From Catajapyx aquilonaris (taxonomy: Eukaryota): DNA of 64,000 bases. Numbering within the stretch: the first letter of the stretch is position 1; every line of letters begins with the position of its first letter. Location of the stretch: contig KZ538447.1 of NCBI GenBank assembly GCA_000934665.2, positions 1 to 64,000 on the forward strand, given 5' to 3'. A model generated the notes under the pieces. That model did not search any database, was not told the DNA's origin, and saw only the letters and a program-made list of their open reading frames with translations. A program made the position numbers and the translations under genes. Positions 243 to 22,200 of this stretch are shown here, piece by piece.

Positions 243-426
243 TCAAGGCACACACCTATACATTTTAATTGGCTCTGTCTGTCCGCTGGACTTTTCCACA
301 CTGTTCTTCTTGGTGTCCTGTTCAGGCTCCGGACGCTGGGCAAGGTTCGGAATGTTGTCTTCCATAATCTTTCGGGATTCACTCCTTGTCACCTGAAGAC
401 TCTTTTCTTCCAAGTTAGACTCATTC
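243..426 (-). CDS. Acidic repeat exon, copy 3 (donor at 255, or read on to TGA at 243)
   Basis: NESNLEEKSLQVTRSESRKIMEDNIPNLAQRPEPEQDTKKNSVEKSSGQTEPIKMY; AG|GTGTGTGCCT resembles the other repeat donors. Confidence 0.62.
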
Positions 427-3400
427 CTGGGGAATACCACATGATCCCATAATTTAGCTCACATCCGTATCGGCAGATAATTATGTGTTAAAATCAACGG
501 ACAAAACCGAGGCTCTCACTCGTTTCGCTGAGTTGCCTCTGACGCTGACTGTCCACTGGGATCTTCGACACGCTCCTCTTCAGACTCCTGACGTTGGTCA
601 AGGTTCGGGATATCTTCCATGATCGTCGTGACTTCAGCCATTGCCACCTGAAGACTATTTTCATCCAAGTTAGACTTATCCCTGGAATACCATAAATGTT
701 CCCATAATTTAGCACACATCCGTATCGGAAGATAATTATTATGTGTTAAAATCAACGGACAAAACCGAGGCTCTCACTCGTTTTGCTGAGTTTCCCCTGA
801 CTGTCCGCTGGGATCTTCGACAAGCTCCTCTTCAGGCTCCGGACGTTGGTCAAGGTTCGGGATATCTTCTTCCATGATCTTCGTGACTTCAACCATTTCC
901 ACCTGAGGACTATTTTCAGCGACGTCCAACTCATCCCTAAAAAACATACCACGTGTTTCATAATTCAGATCACATCCACATAAGAACAGTGATGTCGCGT
1001 TTATAGGCTACACACGTCCTGTTGGCATATTGCAGAGGAGAAAAGGAGCGGGAGGTGTACGGGGGAAAGGGCTAATAAATTTGTCGGGTTCCGGAATACC
1101 AACAGGACAGGAGAGGACGCGACAATCCAAGAGATACGGATTCCGCGGATGGAGAACCAAGTAAACCCATTGAGCATTTCCACTTGCCTTGGTTGTGTAA
1201 CAGGCTGGGACAGCGACACTACTGATGCCTGTTCTACAGAAGGCATTTCTTCTTTTTCAGTACTCCAATCGGCCAACATTGTGTCGATGTTCTCACCTTC
1301 CCTTCTGGATTTTGGGTAATGCCATTCTTGATACGAAGGACGAGGTTCTTTCCTGCTGCTCTTCCGAGAAACCCTACTTGTTCTCTTTTCGTGTCCAAAT
1401 AGGCTCTCTATCATGGCCTCGTCAACTGGTCTTAACTGCAGGAGTCGGAATATTATCAGCGCAAAGCCGTGCTTATCAACTTCAAGAACTTCATTGACAC
1501 CATTGAGCTCCTGCGCCTGCCTGGCCAATTTTTCAGCCGCAGCTGCCTCCACTTCCACATACATAGCAATTGCGCCTACGCGATCGATCTGAATCCTTAA
1601 AATGTAGATTTTATTAATGAACACCACAATGGTCGTGTGTTCCACCTATAATGAATTCACACTCATTATCGCGTACAATATAATTATGTCGATTTCAAAT
1701 AAGAGAAAAGGTCTTACCTGACTATATGAAGCCACATGAATTCCCTCTTCAGACAACAACACTTTTTCGCTGGGTACAATAATACGTCCGAACACTTGTA
1801 TTAGTGAGCAACTCACTGCCAAGCCATCATCAGGTGGATGTTCCAATACCTATAATGTAACGTGCAGAACATGATCTGTTCAAAATGGCAGGTCGTCAAT
1901 AAAACCTACTCTGATTTTGTTGCTCTTGGGGAGCTTTGGCAGGGGTGCTGACAGGGAGGGGAAGCTGAGTGGCTCGTCGACTTTCGGTTTGTGGCTGATG
2001 TTGCTGAATAGCCACCTGCAGAATTCATAGTCAATTTCGTCGTGGAAGTGGAGACAGTTTAAGTACTCCAAAAACCTGATGAACTTTTCTAAATATCAAT
2101 TGAGAAATGTGTAATGCTGTATTCATGTTACAATATTATTTTCATACAGTGCAGTGAATAAAGTACGCTATACCTGGAAATCTGCGGCCCACATAGTGCC
2201 GTTGAAGGGATGATCGTAGGTTGCTCATGAAGTGTTTTTTAACTTCATAGACCTCTTCAGTGGCGTGATGCTCCCAGGGAAGCGTCCTTCCCATCAAATG
2301 CAGCATGTTGTAACCTATCATTTCCAGATCCCCCCTCCAGGAATGTCCTGTAACATTTGACACCAAACAACTCAGCAAAGTCCACAATACAGGGTGTCTC
2401 AACTTTTTTGTCCTAACAGTTATCGGAAATATTGTACTAAGCTGCTTATTTGTTAGTCAGTGACTTGCAACCACAGTGATGATTCCGTGGCTTTATCAGT
2501 TGAGGGATGTGCCAGGAATGTTGGGTATCATATTCTGGCTACATAGCTAGAAGCTACATAGGCTTTTCCGATAACTGTTCGGACAAAAAAGTCGAGAAAC
2601 CCTTAACGTCACACAGAAGAAAGAGAAGCAGTTTTGGAGTTTTGATATTTGCAAAACGAAAACAAGCAAACAATATCGTATATTTCTGTGGGACTTGACA
2701 GAATCGGTCATTCACATGGTGCACTTTATTAAGTGTAATTTTCATACTCACAGTACAGTAGATAGTGTAAGTGTTTCCGTTAGGAGTTTTAGAGCATGTT
2801 CTATCTTTTGCGCTTATACGTACGTAAATAGTTAAAAAAGGCACGTTCTGAACGTGGGAATAGAAATATATCTGCCGAATATTGTAAATGTACACTGAAA
2901 AAACCGAAATGATTACAGTAACCAAAACTATTTGGTTGAGTGAGATTTGGTTGCTTTCACCAAAATCTTAGCTGAATTGAAAAAACAGAATTGGTTGAAG
3001 TATAACCAAAACATTTTGGTTGAAGGGTAAAGGGCCTATGCGATCGTTTCAACCAAAACCTTAGCTACTACAACCAAATGTACACCATGTCAACGAAAAT
3101 TTTGGTTACATCAACCAAATTTTTAGCAGGTTCTATATTAACCTTCCTATTTGGTTGAATTAAACATGTTTTTGGTTTGTTCAACTATATTTTTTTTTGA
3201 GTGTAAGAATAATTATGTTCTGCCGATTAGGAAAAAAAAACAACATATCCAACAGTAGGCCCTACAGCCTAGCCATTATTAATGTTCAAGCCCCAATCAT
3301 CCATCTTTGCCCAGAATACATAATGCCCAGAAGCAGGATATATTACTGCAAAGTTGTAAACTGAAGGGATGACGGAATATATTGTAACCCCTTGGCTCGA

Positions 3401-6370
3401 GGAAGGCAGCATGAAGCCATATCATAATGTGTTCAGCCTAGAATAGTACAGACGCCACAACCCTTTCACTATATGAAGGGTCGCCCCGAATAATGTTGTA
3501 AGTGATTAAATGTAACCCATGACATTTACAACATTATTCAGGGCAATCCTTCATATATCACAAATAAGATATTTTTTATCGTTGTGACACTGGCATTATT
3601 GTACGAGAAAACAATCAGTAGACTACTGTATAGGTCATACTGCCTCTCAGATTTCCCGACCAATATTGCAGTTCTCGAAAAAAAAAAACCACTTCATTGC
3701 CATTTGATTTAGTCCAAAGAGGAAACCCTGAAACTGCCGGCCACTATCGCTTATTTCAAACGAATCGACAGTATGATGGTACGCCTGAAAACTCTTCCAA
3801 GGCCAAAGATTCCGCTGCAGTTTTTCCTAATAGCGATTTATATAATTCTTATGTCACTTAAAGCAGTGACCGGGAGTGACGCTTTCATAATTATATAGTG
3901 TTGTAAAAATACGTAAATTTTTACTGAACCCCCTTTTCCGCCTTTTTTGAAAATATGTTTTTATCCTGCAAACTTTTACAGAAACTATTTGGCTTTTTCA
4001 TGTCCATTATCAAGTTTAATAACTGTAAAAATTATTACAGTTATTACTGACTTCTCATATTTAAATGGCTTAAAATGGAAACATGGAAAGTCTCACTTTC
4101 CAGATTTTTATTGTTAATAAAATTAGAAAGTGAGCCTGCCACTGTTGGTCGTCCCCCTTTTCTGGGGCATCTTCAAAACACATAGGGTCTGCAAGTACAG
4201 TATATTCCAGGACCTACTCATTGTAACAGCAGATTTCTGCAGGGCTTCCCTCAGTGATTGGGTCAGAGAGCAAGTATTAGTCAGAAAAATTTTGCAGTCA
4301 CTTTTATGAAAACTTGAATAAATATGATTCAGCATAAATGATTATCTAATCATTCCACAAACTTCAGAGTACAAACCCGATAAATTACTCGTACGCAACT
4401 TATTCAGTTTCCAATAAAATATTACTAATGAAAATGAATGTATGTCAAATGACTTTTTGTCATTGGTTGAACGTTGAAGTATAACAAGCCTGCCGAGGAC
4501 GGAAAGGCACGAAGACCGACGGAATGACGGAAAATACGTAACTACCGAAACAATGTGATCATAAAGGTTTATCTCCAAGACGGAAAACAAATAGATCACG
4601 AATTACTGTGGGTTGACTTAAGAGAATGTTACCACCAACTAAAAGTTTTCGTCCCACTCCTATATAGAGTGTATAGATACTGCTAAGTTAGCAGTGGAAC
4701 GAAAATTCGACCCTAAATATCTTTATGTAACATTTGACTGGAATGTACTGTACGTGATTCGTTCCAAGTTCAGGTTACATGATCACCTCGAAAATATATA
4801 ATATGAGAGTCTACAGAGCACCCAGGTCTCCTTCCAGACATAATATGAAGCCATTGAAACTCGAGACCTCATGCAGAACAAGTAGCTACCATAACCTATA
4901 CGGGGACGAATGGGCAACTTATTCTTGTTAGATTTATCACGATTGGAACCTTTCAGTTTAAAATGCCAATTTTTCCAATCGCTATTAACATGACCGCCCC
5001 ACAACAAAATAACTGAACTAACGCGAACAAATCGTCATGTTTGAGGAAAAAAAGCGGCAAAAACCGAGCAGGAAAAATAGCACCAAGTTGAAAGACCTCA
5101 TTAAAGACGCGTCATAGAAAGTCAGCAAATAATTATGAACTTACTATTTAAATGGGAGTCCCTAGATCTCAGCAGGAGGGAGGGCTCCATCCTATGCTCC
5201 ACACCGAGGCTGCTGGTCCCGTCGTAATGATCAGATAAGCCACCACCACTCAGGTAAATCTTTCCTTTTCTTCCTCGGATGGTTTCCAGTGTGACATCAT
5301 TGTGGATGAAACCATGTGCGTGTATGTACTCCACTGCATTGATCTGTAAGACCAGGATTATAAGTTACACAGGGCATTTAACTTTAAAAATAAAAGGTTC
5401 AACACGTATGCTGCAACATAGATCAAAATGAGTCTTGCTTGAAAGGAGTACTAACTAAGTTAATTCCGATTGAGAACACTCTTTGGTCACTAATTATTAT
5501 AGCTTCTCTTCGCAGGTATTCTTTCAATGACAGTCCCAGCTTGTCGAGGATATAGAACACCCACAAGTCTTCATCAACTGTAGGCACTTCCCCAAAGTCG
5601 TGTAATGTTTCAAGACCAACATGCTGCACTTGGACTTCTTCTTTCCATGCTGAAACTAAAGATTTATTTCATTGTACAATGCCTTAATAGTCTTGATAAA
5701 ATAATATGCGCAATGCATTTTCCTAACCTACTCTATAATAGTCTGTTATTTACTTATATTATAATAATGGATACCCCGTGATAGGCCTCCTATGGCCTTT
5801 TAGGGGATCATCTTTTATTCAACCGTATTTAAGCATTGCATGTCCTGTGATGGATTTTGATTGTGGGAGGAAACGGGAGAACCCTGAAAAAACCCACGAG
5901 AACACGGAGAGAACCCATGGAAACTATATTCACATAAGTATCCTCTGCCCAACCCGGGGATCGAACTCGGGACCTCAGAGGTGGAAGGCTGTGGCCACCT
6001 AGACCTCTAGGTCACCGTGCCCCCCCCTCCCCCCCGTTTTTCTTATATTATAACAATGCACATAATTATGAAGTTCACTTACTCATATCAGGAACTGAGA
6101 CATGTGAATAATATTCAAGCTCTGACCGGAAGACGTTGTTGGTGGAAACTTTCCCCTAAAAGTGGCAAAATACATAGGCTCAGCCCAAACATATCAACTG
6201 CATGATTTAAGATTGAAAATATTCTCTACTGATAACATATCCCTACCATCTTCAGGATGAACTCCGCTTTTTCTGGATCTTCTAATTCAAGTTTGTCGGT
6301 GACTGAAAAATAAATAAATAAATAAATTAATTAATTAATTAATTAATTAAACAACAACAGCAACAACAGC

Positions 6371-6448
<78 letters not shown>

Positions 6449-6449
6449 C

Positions 6450-6501
<52 letters not shown>

Positions 6502-8315
6502 GGAACTACTACTTGTACTATAAGACTACTATATACTACTGCGACCGACCCTTATACCATACGTTTGAAAGTTTATCCTCCGAAGTATTTAAAACAGTCC
6601 AGCCGTAGCAGTCAAGGCGCACTACACGAGTCACGAGTGATAGTATACAGTACAGTGACACGACGCGACGTACACTACCAGTACAGCCCATCTGAACGTC
6701 TCCAACAATATTATTGGGAGAGATTACTCGTTCCAGTCACGAAAGTGCACTTTACTCCGTGTACTATGCTCAGGCGCGACTGAAGCCAGTCATGCCATCC
6801 CAATAATTTTAATCCACCTCATTGTTGGTGTTCGTCATATGGCCAATATTATGTTCTGGTCTCGAACTTGCAAAAGATTGGAGGAAGGGTTATGTGATAC
6901 CCTTTCGTTCAAACCCCTATTGTCAAATGGAATTATCGTCAAGTGCAGATGTGCAGTGGTTTCCAACCTTTTACCAACTGCGACCCCGCCTAAACATGTT
7001 TCCATAAATGTGCGACCCCCCCCCCNNTGACCCATTTCCAGAAAACATATGCCCTCTGTACGGCCGCAAAAATGGTTCAATTTACACAGAAATTGCAAAA
7101 AAAAAAAAAAAAAGTTGAGCAAAGGCTCGCGACCCCCCCGCGACCTTTCCCGCGACCCCCAGGTTGGAAACCACTGGTCTAGTGCACCTTTGTCGAAACA
7201 ATCTTTGACTAAGGGTAAATATTTTCGTCCAAATATCGAAAGCTAGTTACAGCATTAGTATAGTAGAAGATCTCATTAGCGCCTCCTACCTTGATCGACT
7301 GCTGTGGAAAATAAACGTCACATTAACAAGAATAAATCTCCAGCATGAATGATCTATTCTACTGTATATACCGGTAGTGTATGACCTCATCAGTACTGGA
7401 GCTGGGCCTTCAGTCATCGGGCAAAGATTTTAGGCATGTTTCATCTTTATGAAAAGGCTTTTCTATATTGTATATAGATTAGAAAAATTTCTTCTAGTGA
7501 AATATCATCTGCACTGATTTGGAGTTGCTTTTCAAAAATTATTGGGTCTTTATTTTCTAATATAACCCTATTATAATCAGCTTTTACTGTCTTTGATAGC
7601 CCCTGAGAGTTACTGATCACAAATAATTGCTTAAAAATAAATCAGCTCAGTGCCAAAAAGTCACAAACCTTTAAGGACATTTTTCACTCTGACATGTACG
7701 CGTGTCAAGTAAGGCAGAAATAAGCAGGTCGAGTGTGAAGCAGCGCAATATTTTCGAGATCTTGTTTCGGAAATGAATATCAGGAATGAGACATGAACCT
7801 AGATTCGGAGTAAGAATTCTGGTAGCCCACTTCAAAGCGAAAGCATGAATACACAAATATACGAGCATCTTATCTTTCACTGGCGTCGAGAAGATATAGG
7901 TTTCTATGCACTCATTGTCAGCGCACATGATATACTGTATACATTACCATGCCAGAATAATTTGCATGCAACATATTTATGGCGGGCCCGAAGGACACAA
8001 AATATCACCACGTTCTATTCGATTATTATTTCCTTGCATAACAAACTCTGAGAAACATACTACACACTACACATACTCGTATATCTACGAGTATATACCT
8101 ACACACACCGGTATAGAGTATAATTATAGAGAATACTTACCTACGTACTCTTGTCCGCAATTACTACTGCTTACAAACTTTAAAATCTTCCATGATGTTC
8201 CGCTACATCCTGTGACTAGTTTCCCTACAGGTAGACCCATGTCTTCACTGATTGTTGTGAGCTCTGACTCTTCCGAGAACTTCCTCTTCCTTTGCCTGTG
8301 TTGTTGTGTTCCCAT
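243..8315 (-). CDS. Divergent VRK/CK1-group kinase-like protein (probable pseudokinase) with a PH-like domain and acidic repeat tail; 13-exon model, about 720 aa, 3' end may continue past the window start
   Basis: Phase-consistent exons (minus): 8141-8315, 7290-7301, 6247-6302, 6083-6155, 5456-5655, 5145-5343, 2174-2347, 1910-2088, 1718-1849, 1188-1645, 778-936, 520-681, 243/256-426. VRK-like motifs: EFILKM, SELEYY, VEYIHAHGFIHND, HSWRGDLEMIGYNMLHLMGRTLPWE, FLEYLNCLHFHDEIDYEFCR. Confidence 0.8.
520..681 (-). CDS. Acidic repeat exon, copy 2
   Basis: DKSNLDENSLQVAMAEVTTIMEDIPNLDQRQESEEERVEDPSGQSASEATQRNE; 162 nt, phase 2-2, GT-AG. Confidence 0.7.
778..936 (-). CDS. Acidic repeat exon, copy 1
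   Basis: ttttttAG|G-DELDVAENSPQVEMVEVTKIMEEDIPNLDQRPEPEEELVEDPSGQSGETQQNE|GTGAGA; 159 nt, phase 2-2. Confidence 0.7.
1188..1645 (-). CDS. Exon completing the PH-like domain plus linker; ends at a GC donor
   Basis: VEHTTIVVFINKIYILRIQ...AMIESLF...QPR; AAG|GCAAGT donor gives the phase 2 required by the next exon. Confidence 0.68.
1718..1849 (-). CDS. Exon starting the PH-like (SENP6/7-type) domain
   Basis: attatAG|VLEHPPDDGLAVSCSLIQVFGRIIVPSEKVLLSEEGIHVASYSQ|GTAAGA; phase 0 to 0. Confidence 0.72.
1910..2088 (-). CDS. VRK-like exon, end of kinase domain
   Basis: EKFIRFLEYLNCLHFHDEIDYEFCRWLF...KIR|GTAGGT; phase 1 to 0. Confidence 0.82.
2174..2347 (-). CDS. VRK-like C-lobe exon
   Basis: RHSWRGDLEMIGYNMLHLMGRTLPWE...KKHFMSN, matching the VRK SRRGDLExLGY...LPWE motif; phase 1 to 1. 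Confidence 0.88.
2893..3203. mobile_element. Non-autonomous CACTA/EnSpm-like MITE
   Basis: Ends CACTGAAAAAA ... TTTTTTTTGAGTG, TA on both flanks, many internal AACCAAA/TTTGGTT subterminal repeats. Confidence 0.72.
3471..3556. repeat. Short inverted repeat or mini-MITE
   Basis: atatgaagggtcgccccgaataatgttgtaa pairs imperfectly with ttacaacattattcagggcaatccttcatat. Confidence 0.75.
5145..5343 (-). CDS. VRK-like exon with catalytic loop and activation segment
   Basis: INAVEYIHAHGFIHNDVTLET...IYLSGGGLSDHY...RSRDSHLN|GTAAGT; phase 0 to 1. Confidence 0.85.
5456..5655 (-). CDS. VRK-like exon (hinge region)
   Basis: ISAWKEEVQVQHVGLETLHDFG...FYILDKLGLSLKEYL...VFSIGINL|GTTAGT; phase 1 to 0. Confidence 0.8.
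5849..6022 (-). mobile_element. tRNA-derived SINE
   Basis: Minus strand: GGGGCACGGTGACCTAGAGG (A-box-like), GAGTTCGATCCC (B-box), then GTGGGTTTTTTCAGGGTTCTCCCGTTTCCTCCCACA, the core seen in V/Meta-type SINEs; 3' boundary approximate. Confidence 0.78.
6083..6155 (-). CDS. VRK-like exon with the alpha-C helix
   Basis: cttttAG|GKVSTNNVFRSELEYYSHVSVPDM|GTAAGT; phase 0 to 1. Confidence 0.75.
6247..6302 (-). CDS. VRK-like exon with the beta-3 lysine
   Basis: tttttcAG|...TDKLELEDPEKAEFILKM|GTAGGG; phase 1 to 0. Confidence 0.75.
6308..6501. repeat. Compound microsatellite (TAAA)n(TTAA)n(CAA)n(TAA)n
   Basis: Directly visible; abuts the acceptor of the 6247-6302 exon. Confidence 0.97.
6954..7176. 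mobile_element. hAT (Charlie-like) MITE
   Basis: Perfect 16-bp TIRs CAGTGGTTTCCAACCT / AGGTTGGAAACCACTG, internal GCGACCC repeats; flanking 8-mers (cagatgtg, gtctagtg) do not match as a TSD. Confidence 0.78.
7290..7301 (-). CDS. VRK-like gene, 12-nt microexon (AVDQ)
   Basis: ttttccacAG|CAGTCGATCAAG|GTAGGA; phase 1 to 1. Confidence 0.55.
8141..8315 (-). CDS. VRK-like gene, first coding exon (N-lobe start, degenerate G-loop)
   Basis: MGTQQHRQRKRK...LPVGKLVTGCSGTSWKILKFVSSSNCGQEYV; donor G|GTAAGT, phase 1. Confidence 0.7.
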
Positions 8316-19200: not shown

Positions 19201-22200
19201 TCGGGGGTATAGTGGAGGTAGGGGTGGGCTGGAAGGGTGGTAAAAACACCGGAACTGGAGGCCAGATGGGCTCAGGGAGTGTGTCCGCGTACAATTGCGG
19301 GCAGGTGGCAAGTGGATGGGATACACATTTCTCCCCTCCAGTATTGTGTCTACCACACACCCACCCAGCCCGACACACACACATACATTCGCCCACTCCC
19401 ACACACTTTCCTGCGGCCTATATCCAGGCCGCAACCCGATGTCCCATTAGCAAAATTGCTGCCGGGGAGGGCTATTTTTCATTACGGTGACACTGCTCAC
19501 GCCATCTTGGCCGTATCTTTGAGCACCTCCAGGGAGTTATTACAGCAAGGGCATTGGTCTCATCTACACCGGTGACAGGAGACTAAATGGGGTCGTCCAT
19601 TACGCAGCATTATTCAACCGAACAGGAAAATGATAGCAGTAACTGCAAATCTCTTATGTTACGTATGAAGGCTATTTGCCCCATGTGTAAAATATGCCCA
19701 CTAAACTAATTGCAGGGACTGACTGAATCGCCCTTTATCCTGCAAATAAAGGCAACCAATTGCCAAATCAGTACTTTTATTGAGAGTCGACCAACGGAAG
19801 TTGGCAATGCAGATTTTCGCTGACACGGTGCCCACGTGCAGACTACCCCTTCTATGGGGAGGGGGGGGGGGNNNNNNNNNNNNNNNNNNNNNNNNNNNNN
19901 NNNNNNNNNNNNNNNNNNNNNNNNNNNNNNNNNNNNNNNNNNNNNNNNNNNNNNNNNNNNNNNNNNNNNNNNNNNNNNNCCCCCCCCCCCCCCCCCCCCC
20001 CTCGAACCGTCTAGGAAGGACATAAAAGCGAGGGTCGGCTGGTTTGTACAAATACACGCACATCGAGCTTGCACGCATTCTCTTTGCACACTTTTACTCT
20101 CCGTTCATAAACTCATGCTTTGATCGATACCATTCTCCAGTAGATTTAATGAAATGGAAATTTACCTTTTTGGTTAATACGTACGGGATTTTTTCCATTA
20201 AAACTGGCTTAACATTTTTGAAAGAACTTATCAGATAAAACTAATTCGGAAACTGATGAACTAAGTATTTTTTTTAAAGTCCCGCTATGGTTGTTAAACG
20301 ACTGCCCATGGCTTAACACCACCTTAAAGTCCATTTCATGCAACAGGACTACAGCGCCATAAGTTAGCAAATTTTCTCCCGTCATTCCGAGCACCTACTT
20401 TGGTCTTAGCGATTTTGTAATCCATCATGCAGCGAGTTTGGATAATTACCCAAATTTCCGACTAGTGATAGCTCCGCCGCGCTATAGCTCGGGTTCTCGG
20501 GTTTTGACCCCTGAACATGGCTGTAAAGACCTAATGGCAGTTTCCAAGGAGCATATTAAACCGCCATCAAAATTCGCAAAAAAAGAGACTTCCCTGCAAG
20601 GTTTGGGTGTCAACCCTTGGATAATGAATTCGCCAGCCTCCCCCATCTTATATCAAGTGAACGAACAGCACAGCCATTAACACTCCCTATAAAAACAGGG
20701 CTGGAACCAAATTTTATGCCTCACATTCTCAAAAAACATAAATCGCATTTTGATAGGCGCATCTCGGCCACCATGATATTACTGTCACAGCCAACAGTGC
20801 AAAAAAAAAGGTGCAGTGTTGAGTCGGCCAAAAGAAGAAATATACGAGGTCTTTTCCAAAATATCTGTTAATGAGATGGGCCAGACCAACCTTGCGTCTT
20901 TTAATATCCTCGGCCGCTTCGCCAATGACATCATTAACAATATCGTGATTATCAGTCTGAGTCGGAGGAGGAAATATGGGTTGGCCGTGGGGAAGGGTGG
21001 CGGATTTTCTGAATTTAATGGCGCATATCCACGCGAACTCCTCCGGCACTACGCACGTTCACCTTATTTATTTCCCATCGATTATGAGTTTCCCCCCATG
21101 AAAGTTTTCCAGCTCAGACATCAGAGGATGTTGGCCCTCGGGATGGGCCTAAAAGTCAACAAACAACCCCGGTCCAATTACTAGTGAGTAAGGTAACGTG
21201 GCAGGAATCATCATAATTGGTTTCGGGGACCCCCTTACTTACAGCTGGATGCGGCTTCTGGATGGCAGCTGTTAGAGTCGGTTTTGGCCTTGTTTGTCCC
21301 TTTATTTCCTACTCACCTGGAAAGTCATTAGTTTCGTCTGCCTCCGGTACTGAAGCCAACTAGGAATCAGTGTCATTATAAATGGCTTGGCCAACACTGT
21401 AGGTGTCCAATAATTATATACAGGTGGGCAATCAATTATCCACGCGGATTGGTCCCAATCAACGTTTCGAATGCCGTATGTGATCGATATACGCCATCAA
21501 TACACTACACCGTTTCATAATGTGATTATTAGACCTTGAGACTTTTCAAAAAGAAACAACTTTATTAAATCCCAGTTCAAGAGATAAGTAGAGAAGGAAG
21601 TTGTTAATTGTTCGCTCCAGCAACCAGTTTAAAGGGAAGGCACAATTCCAAGTGAATATGGCCCTGATGGATTCTTCCATTAGGGTTGCTTCTCTTTAAG
21701 CTGGTTGCTGGGAGAAGTAATCCATTACTTCTTAACCTACTTCTGCCTTGAGCAGGGGACTTACAGAGTTACAGTCAGCACATCACCAAGGATAATCATA
21801 TAACGAAAATGAGCCTATGAGTCGCGTAATGGAAATGTGTATCAATCACTGAACGCCAATATTCTTATTGGTTCAGACTTGGTCCTGAAAGTTGTTATTG
21901 TCCCACAGATTGATCATTGATGTATTGACGAGTTCCCAGGCCATTCAATAACGAGGTTTCCAATAGTGAGTCACACAGTAGCACATAATTATATAGAGCT
22001 ATCCTTACCGCACGCACGTCTCAGGCTTTTAATCAACCTAATAACAGACCGGTATATCCCCCTGTCGTCTAATTCTAGGATGTCCCGAAATGTGGGACAG
22101 ATTTCGCCTGGAAATAGGTAATAAAAGTCTACTTATAAATGAGAGTGGGTCTTCTCCATCACTCCCACCCGGAAATGAAGTCTTTAAGAGTAGTGATCCT

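Follow-up and report, generated by a model that had tools for sequence, protein, structure and literature searches.

A predicted VRK-type pseudokinase gene with an orphan C-terminal module in Catajapyx aquilonaris

A twelve-exon gene at the start of the contig

We analyzed the first 64,000 nucleotides of contig KZ538447.1 from the Catajapyx aquilonaris genome (GenBank assembly: GCA_000934665.2; hereinafter the window), which carries close to its start a minus-strand gene of 12 exons running from position 8315 to 256. It probably encodes a VRK-type pseudokinase whose C-terminal module is an orphan. The exons, traced by eye and then checked by script, are as follows:

Exon 1, 8141..8315, minus strand: ATG at 8315-8313, basic cluster and degenerate glycine-loop region; GTAAGT donor, ends in phase 1
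Exon 2, 6247..6302, minus strand: short N-lobe exon with a lysine where that of beta3 is expected; acceptor TTTTTCAG, donor GTAGGG
Exon 3, 6083..6155, minus strand: N-lobe (alphaC region), 24 residues; acceptor TTTTAG, donor GTAAGT
Exon 4, 5456..5649, minus strand: end of the N-lobe, hinge and alphaD-alphaE, identified by open frame, splice sites and phases
Exon 5, 5145..5343, minus strand: degenerate catalytic loop and degenerate activation segment
Exon 6, 2174..2347, minus strand: last part of the activation segment and the stretch from alphaF to alphaG
Exon 7, 1910..2088, minus strand: last kinase helices and a 25-residue linker with six prolines; ends in phase 0, donor GTAGGT
Exon 8, 1718..1849, minus strand: 132 nt, 44 codons, phase 0 at both ends; start of the C-terminal region
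Exon 9, 1188..1645, minus strand: 152 codons and two bases, phase-0 start; GC donor (AAG/GCAAGT) at 1188
Exons 10-12, 936-778, 681-520 and 426-256, minus strand: tandem acidic repeat exons; exon 12 ends in phase 2

Joined by their coordinates, the 12 exons amount to 2132 nt and 710 codons with no stop, and all 11 junctions are phase-compatible. Each acceptor is a pyrimidine-rich AG, and the donors comprise 11 GT sites together with the consensus-like GC site that ends exon 9. As the splice sites were chosen to fit, the 710-codon open frame is no independent proof of the model; canonical splice sites are nonetheless present wherever the model needs one. Of the 6408 stop-free runs in the six frames of the window, one alone is longer than the run containing exon 9 (1001-1645, 214 codons). 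Exon 2 is open in one of three frames and its phases fit both exons 1 and 3, and exon 3 is in turn required for phase continuity from exon 2 to exon 4. The phase-2 end of exon 12 makes it probable that the gene extends past the start of the window. When the peptides of all exons were compared with the window by tblastn, no paralogous copy was recovered besides the repeat exons, and the two plus-strand open frames lying beneath the C-terminal exons (1201-1494 and 1332-1589) matched no Pfam family.

The gene has short GT-AG introns and lies among microsatellites and a tRNA-like repeat, features that suggest a genome of animal type. A long compound microsatellite at 6310-6510, in intron 1 just upstream of exon 2, consists of (TTA)n, (GTT)n and (TTAA)n, in this order on the minus strand. 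A tRNA-like stretch (5830-6010), intronic and located between exons 3 and 4, carries a GGTTCGATCCC-type box B (minus strand) and is probably a tRNA-derived short interspersed nuclear element. Runs of N (119 N in total) occur at 7026-7027, ~13850 and ~19800-19900, with G- or C-rich tracts flanking them; they represent either gaps in the assembly or masked sequence, and one of them falls inside intron 1.

Three kinase exons weakly match the CK1/VRK group

The kinase exons were compared singly, without splicing, with the sequences of solved structures (phmmer against the PDB). Exon 5 aligned to residues 113-185 of CK1delta (E-value 0.011), with VRK2 and VRK1 at E-values of 0.62 and 0.94. All nine matches of exon 6 were to VRK1 or VRK2, the best being VRK1 241-290 (E-value 0.008), and exon 7 aligned to CK1delta 243-277, the last helices of the domain (E-value 0.035). 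A Pfam scan of exon 5 as a single exon gave the Pkinase family at an E-value of 0.035 and 13.9 bits, under the cutoff of 31.7 bits. Each of these matches is weak singly; however, those of exons 5-7 share their order, their spacing and their kinase group, and for this reason the kinase part is reasonably placed by its sequence in the CK1 group, closest to VRK. This agrees with the initial annotation, which had proposed a VRK-like kinase.

The N-lobe is delineated by other means. Searched alone, exons 1, 3 and 4 had no match among the PDB sequences, and exon 1 alone belonged to no Pfam family; its phase fit and position suggest that it encodes part of the N-lobe. Exon 2 is likewise a presumptive N-lobe exon with no database match, and exon 3 presumably resembles the VRK alphaC motif. 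In a word-index homolog search, none of the two candidates for exon 6 and none of the 68 for exon 5 reached an E-value of 0.01.

The catalytic residues are lost

Aligned to CK1delta, the catalytic loop of exon 5 reads H-N-D-x-T-x-x-T in place of HxDxKxxN, and the DFG position reads G-G-G in place of DFG or DYG; an active kinase would be expected to keep both motifs intact (as defined in the available part of Scheeff et al. 2009, PMC2639636). Thus, the lysine and asparagine of the catalytic loop and the metal-binding aspartate of DFG are all replaced, whereas the catalytic-loop aspartate is retained. On account of these three replacements the encoded protein is a predicted pseudokinase that would be unable to phosphorylate. 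Accordingly, the VRK-like kinase of the initial annotation proves to be a dead one.

Exons 8 and 9 probably belong to the kinase gene

The same annotation had placed two phase-0 exons directly after the kinase C-lobe, and exons 8 and 9 are indeed found there, with phase 0 at 1849, 1718 and 1645. They follow the C-lobe directly, given that exon 7 reaches the last helices of CK1delta before its 25-residue linker. The phase-0 donor of exon 7 is separated from exon 8 by an intron of 60 nt, and a further 72 nt separate exon 8 from exon 9. Neither exon has an in-frame start of its own, and retention of the intron after 1910 would lead to a stop after ten codons. With a phase-0 donor, a 60-nt intron and no ATG in exon 8, a single gene is the simplest arrangement, as the 5′ exons of a separate gene would have to lie within the kinase gene. 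The proposed fusion of the kinase to a new domain is therefore probable, and the kinase exons and exons 8-9 would lie in one transcript, as far as splice signals and phases can tell.

Exons 8 and 9 encode a predicted orphan domain

Exon 9 encodes about 86 residues of predicted folded sequence, succeeded by a basic stretch and then by a mixed acidic tail. Neither exon 8 nor exon 9 matched a Pfam family, and against PDB sequences they returned chance rows only (cadherin-2 at an E-value of 0.54, and a designed TIM barrel). In the word-index search, which for exon 9 drew on proteins of 267-2000 residues, 0 of 569 candidates reached an E-value of 0.01; phmmer with the 86-residue piece of exon 9, the part of the domain covered by this search, gave no match at an E-value of 0.001 or below among 1.84 billion representatives. 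For the C-terminal domain, 435 pattern matches in metagenome contigs yielded none that was confirmed. In the ESM Atlas the 86-residue piece had no usable match (language-model recognition 1833 against a mark of 2300), and the best score for exon 8 was 0.86, to APC10/DOC-type beta-sandwich clusters, under the lead mark of 0.9. Neither relatives nor this protein itself turned up in the collections searched (word-index with exons 5, 6 and 9; phmmer with the 86-residue piece). In these collections the C-terminal domain is an orphan with no detectable sequence relatives.

AlphaFold, run on single exon pieces with no alignment, modeled residues 1-86 of exon 9 with a predicted local distance difference test score (pLDDT) of 72.1 and a predicted template modeling score of 0.54, two of the five models exceeding a pLDDT of 70. 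The model comprises strands at 4-10, 14-20, 25-31 and 50-56 and helices at 34-46, 58-71 and 76-82, that is, in the order strand, strand, strand, helix, strand, helix, helix. Exon 8 alone gave four short strands at a pLDDT of 56.7. The region, which had been described as beta-rich, is thus predicted to combine four low-confidence strands in exon 8 with a core of four strands and three helices in exon 9, which suggests a domain of mixed beta/alpha type, compact and about 125 residues long.

Foldseek with the exon 9 model against the PDB returned nothing at an E-value of 0.001 or below; its top rows were type III pantothenate kinase (E-value 0.043, template modeling score 0.33), an exopolyphosphatase-like protein, YeaZ, the HIV RNase H domain, Pelota and a small ribosomal protein. 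Among the 50 rows listed by VIA-align, 21 were titled PH, PTB, FERM, DH-PH, Spt16-middle or Ran-binding, which we take together as one superfold. Most of these cover model residues 3-49, several of them on the last strands and the helix of the target (e.g., 58-108 of the 117 residues of the AKT PH domain). A further 12 of the 50 are actin-like ATPase-fold proteins, looser matches that cover 51-78 residues and hence more than the PH rows. The strands of exon 8 (up to four) and the first three of exon 9 would make about seven strands followed by a helix. The fold that we favor for the domain, although at well below even odds, is a PH-like one, in which a helix closes a beta-sandwich and is followed by one more strand and two more helices.

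The acidic repeat exons are probably recent duplicates

Exons 10-12 (256-936, minus strand) each lie within a 255-bp unit of exon plus intron (Tandem Repeats Finder: period 255, 2.4 copies, 85% matches), and exon 10 as a tblastn query finds exons 11 and 12. In the first two units the introns are identical at 87 of 91 positions (96%) and the exons at 135 of 153 (88%), and the exons show a non-synonymous divergence (dN) of 0.154, which exceeds the synonymous divergence (dS) of 0.068. With introns more alike than exons and dN above dS, the sequences suggest a recent duplication of the unit followed by rapid protein change under weak or diversifying constraint.

Interpretation and alternative explanations

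The reading that we favor, at a probability of about one half, is a single intact multi-exon gene of animal type, encoding a VRK-like CK1-group pseudokinase, a proline-bearing linker, a domain of ~125 residues, a basic stretch and acidic repeats, and acting as a scaffold. The sequence shows how the gene is divided into exons, that some of these match kinases, that catalytic residues have been lost and that relatives are lacking; that the exons form one transcript, that the domain has the fold favored above, and that the protein is a nuclear scaffold is what we infer. As the catalytic residues are replaced, a scaffold role is the most likely one, by analogy with VRK3. The kinase-shaped body would bind one partner and the C-terminal domain another, while the protein may be directed to the nucleus or to chromatin by its basic clusters, one N-terminal and one following the domain.

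The other explanations differ from this one chiefly in what they make of exons 8 and 9. The domain could be real and yet have a fold other than PH-like, with exon 9 forming a unit of RNase H-like/ASKHA type or some other small alpha/beta fold, to which exon 8 would add a separate strand-rich appendage. The predicted order of strands and helices in the exon 9 model would suit such a fold, the best Foldseek rows are RNase H-like/ASKHA proteins, and the actin-like ATPase-fold rows of VIA-align extend over more of the model than the PH rows; we hold this alternative to be unlikely. Alternatively, the C-terminal exons may be a non-working part of the kinase gene, either unexpressed or decaying, or belonging to a transcript unlike the 12-exon model. 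The want of relatives, down to the protein itself, would accord with that, as would the excess of dN over dS in the adjoining repeat exons and the low language-model recognition of the 86-residue piece. However, 710 stop-free codons over 11 phase-compatible junctions and the exceptional length of the 214-codon open run speak for a coding function, a pLDDT of 72 from a single sequence of 86 residues is unusual for non-coding DNA, and exon 8, lacking an in-frame ATG, cannot start a protein of its own. A non-working region is in consequence improbable, slightly more so than the SENP-derived origin considered next.

That origin, advanced in the initial annotation, holds that the C-terminal domain is homologous to the region preceding the protease domain of SENP6/7-type enzymes and was joined to the VRK-type pseudokinase by exon shuffling, with a tie to SUMO or chromatin. 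The phase-0 boundaries of the exons would permit such shuffling, and the partial model would fit half of a PH-like domain. Further, human SENP6 presumably has, upstream of its catalytic domain, a conserved stretch that is rich in strands and orders its elements similarly, a consideration that is not independent of the initial annotation. Against this, no SENP protein and no protein bearing Peptidase_C48 emerged from any search (none in Pfam, 0 of 569 word-index candidates at an E-value of 0.01 or below, and 0 phmmer matches among the 1.84 billion representatives at 0.001 or below). The second half of the motif offered as a SENP signature, V-P-x-E-K-V-x-x-S-x-x-G-I, merely restates residues of the window itself. 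Nor did we find a published PH-like domain in SENP6, SENP7 or Ulp2, in a literature where the papers on SENP6 together with pleckstrin homology were judged by their listing alone; two further papers, in the parts available, merely list SENP6/7 as proteases. The kinship of the domain with SENP6/7 is thus unsupported, and we regard its origin by this route as unlikely. An extended version, in which the gene is a lineage-specific chimera of a dead VRK-type kinase and a SENP6/7-type N-terminal module (PH-like domain and acidic repeats), perhaps with a C48 protease past the edge of the window, is the least probable of these alternatives; as far as the gene extends within the window, no Peptidase_C48 domain is seen. 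Were it true, the product would be a pseudokinase-guided SUMO-chain protease, an architecture of which we know of no description.

Returning to the pseudokinase gene with an orphan module, its interest lies in the fact that pseudokinases work through binding, such that an unrecognized folded domain suggests a new partnership. VRK-type scaffolds are tied to the control of chromatin and the nuclear envelope. If the domain were PH-like and common to SUMO proteases, it would link such scaffolds to SUMO signaling. For the present the weight of the finding is modest, since it concerns one unconfirmed gene known from its sequence, and it is common for kinase-like genes that evolve fast and are lineage-specific to carry orphan tails.

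A neighboring gene on the plus strand

Elsewhere in the window, plus-strand open frames between 43092 and 54108 encode laminin-G/ConA-like (E-value 1.7e-4), calcium-binding EGF (E-value 5.8e-20) and VWC (E-value 1.6e-6) domains. This set resembles that of a NELL-type secreted protein gene, and the locus may serve as a synteny anchor.

Comparison with known systems

The resemblance of the C-terminal domain to the pre-protease region of SENP6/7 is a presumed one that no search bore out. To domains of the PH-like superfold (PH, PTB, FERM F3, Spt16 middle, Ran-binding) it shows no sequence similarity, its match scores lie within background, and it would differ from them by an extra strand and two helices after the closing helix.

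Like VRK3, a known scaffold pseudokinase of vertebrates, the protein has a predicted non-catalytic VRK-type fold with a Lys→Thr change in the catalytic loop and an Asp→Gly change at DFG: the corresponding positions of human VRK3 are T308 for the lysine and G326 for the aspartate, as given in the available part of Scheeff et al. (2009, PMC2639636). Unlike VRK3, it keeps the catalytic-loop aspartate. VRK3 carries its extra region at the N-terminus, and this protein at the C-terminus. No VRK3 chain was named among the rows of the PDB searches with exons 1, 3, 4, 5, 6 and 7; hence the closest solved relative is not VRK3, nor is there an N-terminal extension of its kind, and on both grounds we do not claim orthology. 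The Lys→Thr and Asp→Gly changes common to the two proteins may instead be convergent, through independent losses of activity.

With the VRK family at large, the protein shares a short basic N-terminal region ahead of the kinase body, and with VRK1 and VRK2 in particular the alphaF-alphaG exon, which matches these two alone among the solved structures. It differs from both in lacking the catalytic residues and in the make-up of its tail. The tail of VRK1 is short, disordered and basic. That of VRK2 is alternatively spliced (Scheeff et al. 2009, PMC2639636, in the part available); the tail of the Catajapyx protein consists instead of a predicted folded domain and acidic repeats.
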